Virus record (IMG/VR): IMGVR_UViG_2778261425_000003
Length of the DNA: 47,028 bases
DNA from: a virus
Taxonomy: Duplodnaviria > Heunggongvirae > Uroviricota > Caudoviricetes
Strand: one strand, 5' to 3'
Made by a program: the position numbers and the translations under genes. The notes below the pieces were generated by a model, which saw nothing but the letters and a program-made list of their open reading frames with translations, did no database searches and was not told the origin of the DNA. How positions within the stretch are numbered: the first letter of the stretch is position 1; each line of letters opens with the position of its first letter. Positions 39,141 through 40,968 of the stretch are shown piece after piece.

Positions 39141-39764
39141 ATGTCATCAATCCGCTTAACTACGAGAATGAAAGAGAAAATCGCTCGTAACGCTTTAATT
39201 AAGTCTGGGGTTTTCACTGAACTTGAAGAAGTAACAAAGTTAAAGAACCAGCTTGCACTTGACGCCAGAGTTATTGCGTTTGGCGGTAAAAAGAAAACTG
39301 AGGAAGTGGATCAGTTATCATCCAGGTTAGTAGCTATAAGTGAAGAACTTGAAAAGATGGGATGTTCATTTTACTCATACGATGTTCGTTCTACTTCAAT
39401 TTATCTGACTGTATCTGGCAGAAGGGTTGGATGGCATTCATATGGGAAAGACGGCAACGGCGAAGATATATTGCTCCCTACTCCAACCAAAGATAAATGC
39501 ATGTTTGATGCAGAACACGAAATAACAAAAAGGTTTGATGAAATCTGCGCATTGCAACAAAAACTTGAAGCCAAGAAAAAGGATATCGAATCAAATGTAT
39601 GGGCTGCTTTGAACTCAGTCACAACAGTTAAGCGACTTATTGAAGTTTGGCCTGAAAGCAAAGAATTGCTACCAAAAGAAGCAGACAAAGCAAGTACAGC
39701 ACTTCCTGCTTTACGGGTAGAAGATTTGAATAAGATGATTGGACTTCCTTCCGAGTCCGCATAG
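39141..39764 (+). CDS. hypothetical pL-operon protein (208 aa), low GC
   Basis: ATG 39141 with GAGAGGA RBS; Lys/Glu-rich; the ORF-track start at 39081 is TTG-extended. Confidence 0.6.
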   Translation: MSSIRLTTRMKEKIARNALIKSGVFTELEEVTKLKNQLALDARVIAFGGKKKTEEVDQLSSRLVAISEELEKMGCSFYSYDVRSTSIYLTVSGRRVGWHSYGKDGNGEDILLPTPTKDKCMFDAEHEITKRFDEICALQQKLEAKKKDIESNVWAALNSVTTVKRLIEVWPESKELLPKEADKASTALPALRVEDLNKMIGLPSESA

Positions 39765-39898
39765 TCGGCCTTTATTTTTGGCACTAACAACAGAATAAAC
39801 ACTGCACTGTGTATTCATTCCAACGAGTGAATACACGGAGCAATGTCGCTCGTAACCAAACAGGAGCCGACTTGTTCTGATTATTGGAAATCTTCTTT

Positions 39899-39925
39899 GC
39901 CCTCCAATGTGAGGGCAGTTTTTTT
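39899..39925 (+). terminator. intrinsic terminator within the pL operon (tL-like)
   Basis: GCCCTC/GAGGGC stem with 6-nt loop followed by AGTTTTTTT. Confidence 0.55.
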
Positions 39926-39937
39926 GATGGAGGAATT

Positions 39938-40354
39938 ATGGAAATTACAGATATTCTGGTTAATCCAGATAATTACGACCAATTCAATATCTCTACTCAA
40001 TCAGTTGATTTGGGTTGTGCAACTGTCAGCGCATGGCTACTTAATGGTAAACAGTTGGATAAATGCCTTGATGCACATATGACGGTTAACAGCTTCCTTG
40101 CAGAAAAAACACACTGGCAAGATGCTGGAGGGAAATATGCTGGATGGCTTGAAAGCATGGGATTTGAATATCAATCTGATGAAGGTTGGTGGAGCCTTAT
40201 AGCTGTAACGCCTGAGACAATAGAATGCTTCGTTAAATACTCAAACGACGATGACTATAAACACCAGGTAGATTCTGCGATAGAAAGATATAAAAGAAAA
40301 TCATTCAACCACGAAATATCATCAGTTCTTGATTTCATAGAAGTTTTCAAATAA
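39938..40354 (+). CDS. hypothetical pL-operon protein (138 aa)
   Basis: ATG 39938 with GGAGGA RBS; MEITDILVNPDNYDQFNISTQSVDLGCATVSAWLLNGKQ... Confidence 0.55.
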   Translation: MEITDILVNPDNYDQFNISTQSVDLGCATVSAWLLNGKQLDKCLDAHMTVNSFLAEKTHWQDAGGKYAGWLESMGFEYQSDEGWWSLIAVTPETIECFVKYSNDDDYKHQVDSAIERYKRKSFNHEISSVLDFIEVFK

Positions 40355-40455
40355 GCCGCCAAGCGCGGCTTTACCGCATACCAATAATGCTTCACCAGAG
40401 GTGTTTATTCATGAGCGTAAACGCTGATTAATGAACGCAGTTGATAGGATATAAA

Positions 40456-40968
40456 ATGGCATTTATAAAGATTCTTGAATTAATTTCCCTAAGTGAGATT
40501 AATAATGTTGTCAAATATAACCCTATTTCTGGTGAGTTCACATGGCTAAAATCTTATGGAGCAAGGAAGATAGGTGGAACTGCCGGAACAATAACAACAA
40601 GCGGCTACTTAAGGATTTTCATTAACGGAAGACACTATGCTGCACATAGACTTGCATGGATTATCACTTTCGGTGTTGAGCCTGAAGGTATTATCGACCA
40701 TATAAATGGCATAAAGACAGATAACAGAATTTGCAATCTGAGGCTTGCAACTTACTCACAGAATTCAATGAATAGTAAAATAAACACCCTCAACAAATCA
40801 GGTTGCAAAGGAGTCACATGGAAGAAGGAAAGTAGAAAGTGGGCTGCCTATGGGAAATTAAACGGGAAGAAAAAACATCTAGGGTACTTTAATGAATTAG
40901 AAGATGCCAAAAAAGCTTACTGCGACTTTGCCAGAAAGCATCACGGCGAATTCTACAGGAGCAAATAA
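40456..40968 (+). CDS. HNH homing-type endonuclease with AP2-like DNA-binding domain
   Basis: ATG 40456 with AGGA RBS; HINGIKTDNRICNLR HNH-like motif and C-terminal KGVTWKKESRKWAAYGKLNGKKKHLGYFNELEDAKKAY. Confidence 0.7.
   Translation: MAFIKILELISLSEINNVVKYNPISGEFTWLKSYGARKIGGTAGTITTSGYLRIFINGRHYAAHRLAWIITFGVEPEGIIDHINGIKTDNRICNLRLATYSQNSMNSKINTLNKSGCKGVTWKKESRKWAAYGKLNGKKKHLGYFNELEDAKKAYCDFARKHHGEFYRSK

Follow-up and report, generated by a model that had tools for sequence, protein, structure and literature searches.

A probable cassette-built accessory region in the pL operon of a lambdoid prophage, carrying Nmad5, phrog_8967 and HNH endonuclease genes

In bacteriophage lambda, transcripts from the early-left promoter pL end at the terminator tL2a unless the N protein has modified RNA polymerase, and the elements around that terminator follow the order ral, tL2a, ea10, cIII, kil. 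A common plan, in which N is followed by a variable gene, a terminator, optionally a second variable gene, and then cIII and kil, is found in the lambdoid phages HK97, HK106, mEp234, mEp235, Sf6 and Kapi1; in HK97, for example, the series reads N, gp45, terminator, cIII, kil, and HK106 shows the same plan. Here we describe the corresponding region of a tailed-phage genome of the class Caudoviricetes (IMG/VR virus record IMGVR_UViG_2778261425_000003), analyzed as a stretch of 47,028 nt that we call the window and in whose positions all coordinates are given unless another genome is named. The interval under study (39141-40968) holds two genes, termed gene A and gene B, and an HNH endonuclease open reading frame (ORF). 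We consider it likely that the interval corresponds to the accessory, variable segment of a pL operon in a lambdoid prophage, in which gene-sized cassettes are joined by short conserved linkers. Counts for Escherichia coli refer throughout to 5426 complete genomes.

Cassettes and linkers downstream of N

The 160-bp stretch that follows gene A is homologous to the ral-ea10 spacer of lambda (lambda 33925-34082; 158 of 160 nt aligned, 95.6% identity), is 94-97% identical to the corresponding spacers of Sf6, mEp234, Kapi1 and the E. coli prophage TUM9803, and was found in more than 300 phage records. At its end stands the intrinsic terminator that a first-pass annotation, made from the sequence of the window without database searches, had placed between genes A and B: an 8-bp stem (5 G-C pairs) with a 6-nt loop at 39897-39918, followed by a run of seven T residues (U7 in the RNA) at 39919-39925 (folding energy dG -12.7, z -2.65). 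Terminator-like sites as a class are not above chance in the region (2 found vs 3.1 expected), and the element is judged to be real because it is conserved rather than because of scan counts. It is a homologue of lambda tL2a and is not new, since the Sf6 record labels the homologous element bsq4 and "terminator; homology to phage lambda; tL2A", and the records of mEp234, HK97 and HK106 also annotate an equivalent terminator. A second conserved linker, homologous to the ea10-cIII spacer of lambda, begins where gene B ends. When the region is compared with phages that carry a different gene in the second slot, homology stops at the gene B ATG and restarts at the gene B stop codon, so that gene B is an exactly ORF-bounded cassette in the ea10 slot. 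Through such linkers, cassettes could be swapped between lambdoid phages by homologous recombination. In the ea10-cIII-type linker, directly behind the stop codon of gene B, a 7-bp G+C-rich hairpin followed by UUUAC (40353-40371) may be a weak second terminator.

Read from the promoter, the order is pL, boxB-like nutL, N, the Nmad5-family gene (gene A), the ral-ea10 linker with tL2a, the phrog_8967 gene (gene B), the ea10-cIII linker, the HNH/AP2 cassette, cIII, kil, two small ORFs, recT and gp157. The operon logic, the gene order, both linkers, cIII and kil are thus as in lambda. In contrast, the first slot is occupied by Nmad5 instead of sieB/orf28/ral and the second by a phrog_8967 gene instead of Ea10 (DUF2528); N is of the HK97/Stx type with a different boxB, RecT/Gp157 replace Gam/Bet/Exo, and an HNH cassette lies upstream of cIII. 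Since cIII and kil directly follow the HNH gene, the interval equates only to the sieB/ral/ea10 slots of lambda, and the original proposal that it stands where lambda carries ral, sieB, cIII, kil and gam is correct for the sieB, ral and ea10 positions but not for cIII, kil and gam. Among the lambdoid phages, mEp235, Kapi1 and the Stx1a phages likewise carry Nmad5 after N; unlike any of them, the present prophage has gene B, which finds no DNA match in phage records, and the HNH cassette. The whole gene combination of the interval is present in no complete E. coli genome.

Placement of the genes in the pL operon downstream of N, proposed in the first-pass annotation, is supported; N (with HK97 and HK106 matches that are 99% identical across the shared parts) and a pL-like promoter are present, and gene A, gene B and the HNH gene all lie on the + strand. 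Other features read from the sequence at that stage also held, namely the low GC content of the interval (37-40%, vs 49.5% in the window) and the strong ribosome-binding sites (RBSs) of both genes, with good Shine-Dalgarno sequences in gagaggaattaatATG for gene A and ggaggaattATG for gene B; the size given for gene B (138 amino acids, aa) was exact, while the 208 aa given for gene A correspond to 207 aa plus the stop codon. Between pL and N, the pattern GCGCTGACAAAGCGC occurs once in the window against 0.01 expected occurrences and folds into a hairpin with a 5-bp stem and a 5-nt loop (z -2.74), which is likely the boxB of nutL. A promoter scan of the interval returned 7 promoter-like sites vs 7.3 expected, none of them above chance, and an Rfam scan of 36000-43500 gave nothing meaningful.

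Because the terminator is a tL2a homologue, N-dependent distal expression is the textbook expectation. By analogy with lambda, pL transcription would stop at tL2a unless N modifies RNA polymerase; the Nmad5 protein would be made before the terminator, and everything past 39925, from gene B and the HNH gene through cIII and kil to the genes for recombination, would be expressed as delayed-early, N-dependent functions. Consistent with this predicted read-through, the boxB-like hairpin between pL and N is unique in the window and no promoter above chance was detected downstream. The coordinates of the features are collected in Table 1.

Table 1. Features of the early-left region and of other parts of the window
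Feature	Position	Strand	Basis or remark
Lambda-type cI gene	36159-36872		
pL-like promoter, TTGACA-17-GATACT	38419-38447	+	Promoter scan, 10/12 matches; downstream of lambda-type cI
boxB-like hairpin GCGCTGACAAAGCGC, candidate nutL, between pL and N	38516-38530	+	Pattern search and fold
N antiterminator, HK97/Stx-phage type	38696-39079	+	Pfam N_peptide 57.8 bits, phrog_271
Gene A, Nmad5-family protein, 207 aa, accessory slot 1	39141-39764	+	PF18757, phrog_1965
Conserved linker, "boundary sequence" bsq4, homologue of the lambda ral-ea10 intergenic region	39765-39924	+	Alignment; Sf6 annotation
14-bp perfect hairpin, 4-nt loop, no U-run, inside the ral-ea10 linker	39807-39838	+	Fold of 39765-39940, z -5.47; conserved along with the linker, which lambda also has
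Intrinsic terminator, lambda tL2a homologue	39897-39925	+	Scan, fold, annotation of homologues
Gene B, 138-aa acidic protein, accessory slot 2 (lambda ea10 position)	39938-40354	+	phrog_8967, no Pfam match
Second conserved linker, homologue of the lambda ea10-cIII spacer	40355-40401	+	BLAST to lambda 33492-33544 and Kapi1; alignment; fold
Mobile HNH cassette, replacing the cIII RBS and first 6 codons	40402-40985	+	Alignment with HNH-less relatives
HNH_3 + AP2-like endonuclease ORF, 170 aa	40456-40968	+	Pfam, PHROG, PADLOC
cIII, 44 aa, ATG overlapping the HNH stop codon	40968-41102	+	Pfam PF08134, 90.2 bits
kil, 50 aa	41087-41239	+	Pfam Lambda_Kil 72.6 bits
Second, unrelated HNH gene, 116 aa, adjacent to the terminase genes for the small and the large subunit (HK97-type packaging arrangement)	26928-27278	-	PF01844
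Integrase gene at prophage end	44407-45570		
tRNA-Thr(CGT) beside the integrase gene	45585-45660		

Two observations concern the surroundings of N. The prophage combines lambda-like pL hexamers and a lambda-type cI gene with an N of the HK97/Stx type, a hybrid immunity/antitermination module. On the - strand, a 70-aa ORF (38904-39116) overlaps the 3' end of N and matches phrog_37739 (E 3e-16); it is probably an over-call in other phage records and not a gene.

The HNH cassette at the start of cIII

The HNH ORF, which begins with the ATG at 40456 and equals in length the RefSeq call for the same gene in another cassette-bearing locus (L002, 513 bp), matches Pfam HNH_3 (56.8 bits, cutoff 24.8), phrog_99 (E 1.7e-68) and the PADLOC "homing endonuclease" model (E 4.5e-5), and its translation retains an intact DH..N..N motif, IDHINGIKTDNRICNLR. 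Homology to HNH-less relatives is lost after 40401 and is back at 40986, six codons into cIII, indicating that about 584 bp have replaced about 54 bp. The cassette provides cIII with another RBS and a divergent N-terminus, the HNH stop and the cIII start overlapping in the sequence TAATG. The gene is intergenic and rewrites the cIII 5' end; it does not interrupt a gene, a possibility that had been put forward for checking. Because the cIII upstream region and first six codons are replaced, control acting on the cIII 5' region may be altered.

The cassette is present in 10 of the E. coli genomes, all copies being at least 99.4% identical, while 362 genomes carry the same cIII-kil allele without the HNH gene, homology resuming from 40986-40989; with 10 of about 362 comparable loci occupied, the gene is sporadic and not a conserved resident in relatives, the outcome that the first-pass annotation had named as refuting. 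Among 50,697 phage records the cassette is absent, save for a 74% match in a Hafnia phage. The six cassette loci examined share the site and the cIII allele, and the cassette is intact in five of them and truncated by IS1 in the sixth (L022, 2500-2805); all intact copies examined encode one and the same HNH protein, WP_000874115.1. These loci differ in what lies upstream (Nmad5, an Ea10-like DUF2528 gene, gene B, or another HNH gene), in their repressors and in their recombination modules (RecT/Gp157 or Rad52/SSB/Abc2). E. coli Combat2C1 (L024, 1890-3069) has a second, different HNH gene directly upstream of the cassette, giving tandem endonuclease genes.

We take the HNH ORF to be comparable to the free-standing phage HNH homing endonucleases (I-HmuI or T4 mob-type, with HNH_3 and AP2-like domains), and the first-pass designation as a homing endonuclease of HNH/AP2 type is consistent, as regards its HNH part, with the intact HNH_3 domain and the sporadic occurrence at a fixed site. 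The features in common are an HNH_3 domain, followed here by a putative C-terminal AP2-like domain, an intergenic and co-oriented position with the stop codon overlapping the start of the next gene, and sporadic occurrence at one fixed site as near-identical copies in divergent genomes. The difference lies in the target, the cIII 5' end in temperate lambdoid prophages, which is not annotated as such in the records examined and for which homing is predicted here. As judged from sequence comparison, the distribution of the cassette fits a free-standing homing endonuclease: in relatives that reside in the same cell or infect it together with the phage, the enzyme would cleave cIII 5' regions lacking the HNH gene, and repair would then copy in the cassette together with its own diverged, cut-resistant cIII start.

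That the HNH gene is instead an inactive passenger or a domesticated nuclease, moved by ordinary linker recombination, is doubtful, although the flanking linkers are those by which other cassettes are shuffled, a single cIII-kil allele accompanies the cassette in every case and one copy is truncated by IS1. Arguing against a passenger are the intact ORF and catalytic motif, the single protein sequence encoded by all intact copies examined and the ten near-identical DNA matches; moreover, the cassette is not ORF-bounded but overwrites the cIII RBS and six codons with a diverged copy, which is the footprint expected of co-conversion and target immunity, and the prophages that carry it are unrelated in their immunity and recombination modules. 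A packaging nuclease of the HK97 type was also considered for the pL-operon gene and rejected, since a separate PF01844 HNH gene sits beside TerS/TerL.

For the most part, the interval follows the mosaic arrangement long familiar from the early-left operons of lambdoid phages, with components that are largely known. What appears to be new is an insertion point of a putative homing endonuclease, apparently unannotated so far, at the start of cIII; because empty and occupied cIII alleles are both present in sequenced strains, a test of homing is straightforward.

Genes B and A and their candidate roles

Gene B matches phrog_8967 over its full length (E 2.7e-87, positions 1-138 of 138) and has no Pfam match. 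A word-indexed search of 5.8 billion proteins returned about 10 clusters, all enterobacterial, and when 1.84 billion representatives were searched exhaustively with a HMMER profile, 62 proteins were found, mostly of about 90-160 aa; the 53 relatives that were aligned all match phrog_8967 and no other PHROG, and share the core DWGGxYAxWLxxxGIxxxTDNGWWSxxAVxPxNIxxF. The nearest relatives in isolated phages (64-67% identity) are encoded among the small early genes of strictly lytic rV5-like Vequintavirinae, and relatives in the phage collection show 60-80% protein identity, those listed belonging to genomes of ~130-140 kb that are not lambdoid; at the DNA level, no match to gene B was found among phage records. 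The gene is present in 116 E. coli genomes, and its prophage copies, including those from Dryocola and a metagenome, always occupy the slot between the N/ral block and cIII-kil. Both accessory genes had been set against known lambda families in the first-pass annotation, and neither gene A nor gene B matches Ral, SieB, CIII or Gam, nor Ea10/DUF2528 or Abc2, by Pfam and PHROG; for gene B, hhalign of the family against lambda Ea10, lambda Gam and P22 Abc2 gave probabilities below 1%.

Gene B might be a recombination accessory or an inhibitor of a host nuclease, an analogue of lambda Gam or P22 Abc2 that would shield DNA ends or aid the annealing protein of the phage. Such a role is suggested by the recT, Rad52 or Erf modules that follow gene B within its operon, by a metagenomic lineage in which its stop codon and the start of an Erf gene overlap, and by the character of the family, which is small, acidic (median isoelectric point 4.7) and helical in the model and occurs also in the lytic rV5-like phages. 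With the hhalign probabilities to Gam and Abc2 on the other side, we regard this role as unlikely. The phrog_8967 family, confined to phages and found in temperate as well as rV5-like lytic ones, is compact, acidic and a fold orphan, and is a clean candidate for an anti-defense screen.

Gene A, which had been set down together with gene B as uncharacterized, belongs to a named family, although one without known function: it matches Pfam Nmad5 (PF18757) with 243.2 bits (cutoff 27; E 3.7e-72) over residues 4-203 of 207 and profile positions 1-206 of 206, and its homologues carry the RefSeq name "Nmad5 family putative nucleotide modification protein". It is present in 211 E. coli genomes (about 4%). 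Dhillonvirus, eiAU and M6-like phages have remoter relatives, as do phages of Vibrio and Bordetella, and in Serratia, Providencia and Klebsiella prophages, where no N is called, Nmad5 is the first called gene after the repressor, a promoter-proximal early-left position. The AlphaFold2 model of gene A (predicted local distance difference test, pLDDT, 85) consists of long helical hairpins, a small sheet and a C-terminal tail that is strongly conserved in the family alignment despite its low model confidence. Invariant in that alignment are W170-P171-E172, L196-N197, I200-G201 and P203. A fold search of BFVD with this model matched only uncharacterized or Nmad5 proteins, with annotated Nmad5 phage proteins at template modeling (TM) scores of 0.56-0.76.

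Further searches with both genes were negative. Profile searches of the gene A and gene B families against PDB sequences gave nothing below E 0.1, neither gene has an NCBIfam match, and the PADLOC-DB defense models gave no match to either at E values up to 0.1. A literature search by Pfam, InterPro and PHROG family identifiers (PF18757, IPR040835 and the phrog identifiers) returned no papers, and both proteins were absent in a peptide-motif search of the supplements of phage accessory-gene screening papers.

The Nmad5 family name rests on genomic association with nucleotide- or DNA-modification enzymes, and to our knowledge no biochemical activity has been described for Nmad5. A role of gene A as a component of a base-modification pathway marking phage DNA would agree with the full-length match to a "nucleotide modification associated domain 5", with homologues in Pseudomonas phage M6, which a passage of PMC9476957 describes as containing hypermodified thymidines, and with the reading of nmad5 in the paper on Tmn defense discussed below (PMC11846954). 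In the window and in the loci L001, L002, L006, L011 and L013-L016, no modification-enzyme gene neighbors Nmad5. The functional label is lowered accordingly, because no modification enzyme adjoins the gene in the contexts checked: "nucleotide modification" is without contextual support in lambdoid prophages, family membership by sequence stands, and we consider the pathway role improbable.

An N-like antiterminator function was likewise considered for Nmad5, given its place as the first early-left gene in the N-less Klebsiella, Serratia and Providencia prophages, and was rejected, as a long structured leader is present there, N coexists with Nmad5 here and no positive evidence was obtained. 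In three Klebsiella prophages (L014, 4760-4995, and also L015 and L016), the repressor gene and Nmad5 are separated by a leader, much of it common to all three. In L014 it measures 236 nt (dG -86.8, z -3.5), no N is called, and there is a sub-threshold Rfam match to STnc100 (E 0.029); the leader may be an RNA-based antitermination or regulatory element.

That genes A and B are instead prophage defense or superinfection-exclusion genes like lambda sieB or rexAB is very unlikely, for although lambda has sieB in the equivalent region and one E. coli prophage has an annotated "superinfection exclusion protein" between Nmad5 and kil, both genes are co-oriented with pL, promoter-like sites in the interval stay at the chance level, the PADLOC models found nothing, both families occur in strictly lytic phages, and a check of the interval for antisense ORFs arranged like sieB gave no PHROG match.

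The only experimental datum on the Nmad5 family is Tmn escape. Dhillonvirus escapes Tmn defense through the nmad5 substitutions K216E (SM_A8) or K296E (SM_S22), and its nmad5 could not be cloned, apparently because of toxicity (PMC11846954). Alignment of gene A with the two Dhillonvirus genes (SM_A8, L028, 1548-2312; SM_S22, L029, 1506-2510) places the Tmn-escape lysine, the second K of NTDKKLIKAWPE, opposite R165 in TTVKRLIEVWPE of the gene A protein, a residue that is nearly invariant in the family alignment. Gene A and Dhillonvirus nmad5 belong to the same Pfam family, are about 33% identical over the C-terminal 100 residues, and share the motif T-x-K-[KR]-L-I-x-x-W-P-E, with the escape residue at R165, and the tail L-N-x-x-x-G-[IL]-P. 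Unlike gene A, the Dhillonvirus protein has 254 aa with a large middle insertion; Dhillonvirus is a lytic siphovirus, and nmad5 is placed there close to head genes and on the opposite strand. A gene that annotation pipelines label a "nucleotide modification protein", present in about one in 25 complete E. coli genomes, is thereby tied to a Tmn-escape datum at the R165-equivalent residue.

Taken together, genes A and B are most likely non-enzymatic effectors of the lytic cycle that bind a host component, such as a defense or DNA-metabolism protein. This reading is based on the position of gene B behind a repressed pL with no above-chance promoter in the interval, on the occurrence of both families in lytic phages, on the absence of any enzyme signature, and on the apparent toxicity and dispensability of the Dhillonvirus homologue. 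Anti-defense roles of the two genes are plausible as a prior expectation only. More tentatively, the Nmad5 protein, the phrog_8967 protein or both may be unrecognized counter-defense or host-takeover effectors common to temperate lambdoid and lytic coliphages, the Nmad5 surface around R165 perhaps being an interface with KAP-NTPase (Tmn-type) immunity, and the HNH cassette perhaps an active homing element on the cIII translation-initiation region; the combination of these proposals is possible, no more strongly than that.

Several points weigh against the overall reading of the interval given here. Deletion of nmad5 does not abolish the Tmn sensitivity of Dhillonvirus (PMC11846954), so that the Tmn link is indirect or a gain of function. 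The functional proposal for genes A and B draws on context and on the absence of matches, with no positive evidence, and for gene B the structure model is weak, one of five models reaching pLDDT 75, so that the failure of a fold search with it to find any relative is a soft result. The C-terminal AP2 match of the HNH ORF, the other half of its first designation, scores 29.2 bits (E 1.1e-6), below the gathering cutoff of 33.3 bits. Lastly, the cassette could spread by ordinary linker recombination without endonuclease activity, and its linkage to one cIII allele fits homing and linker recombination alike.

Other features of the prophage

In the slot between cI and pL (36950-38202), which corresponds to the rexAB position of lambda, lie a 51-aa membrane-like ORF (36950-37105), a 135-aa ORF (phrog_26809) and a 216-aa ORF (phrog_5820) with a long hydrophobic stretch in its C-terminal part. 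These ORFs are candidates for lysogen-expressed exclusion genes. At the prophage end, a 417-aa gene of the aldehyde-dehydrogenase family (proA-like) is found beside the integrase and tRNA-Thr genes, within 44407-47028. The adjacency of the integrase gene to tRNA-Thr(CGT) and the proA-like gene suggests that the prophage is integrated at the tRNA-Thr gene.

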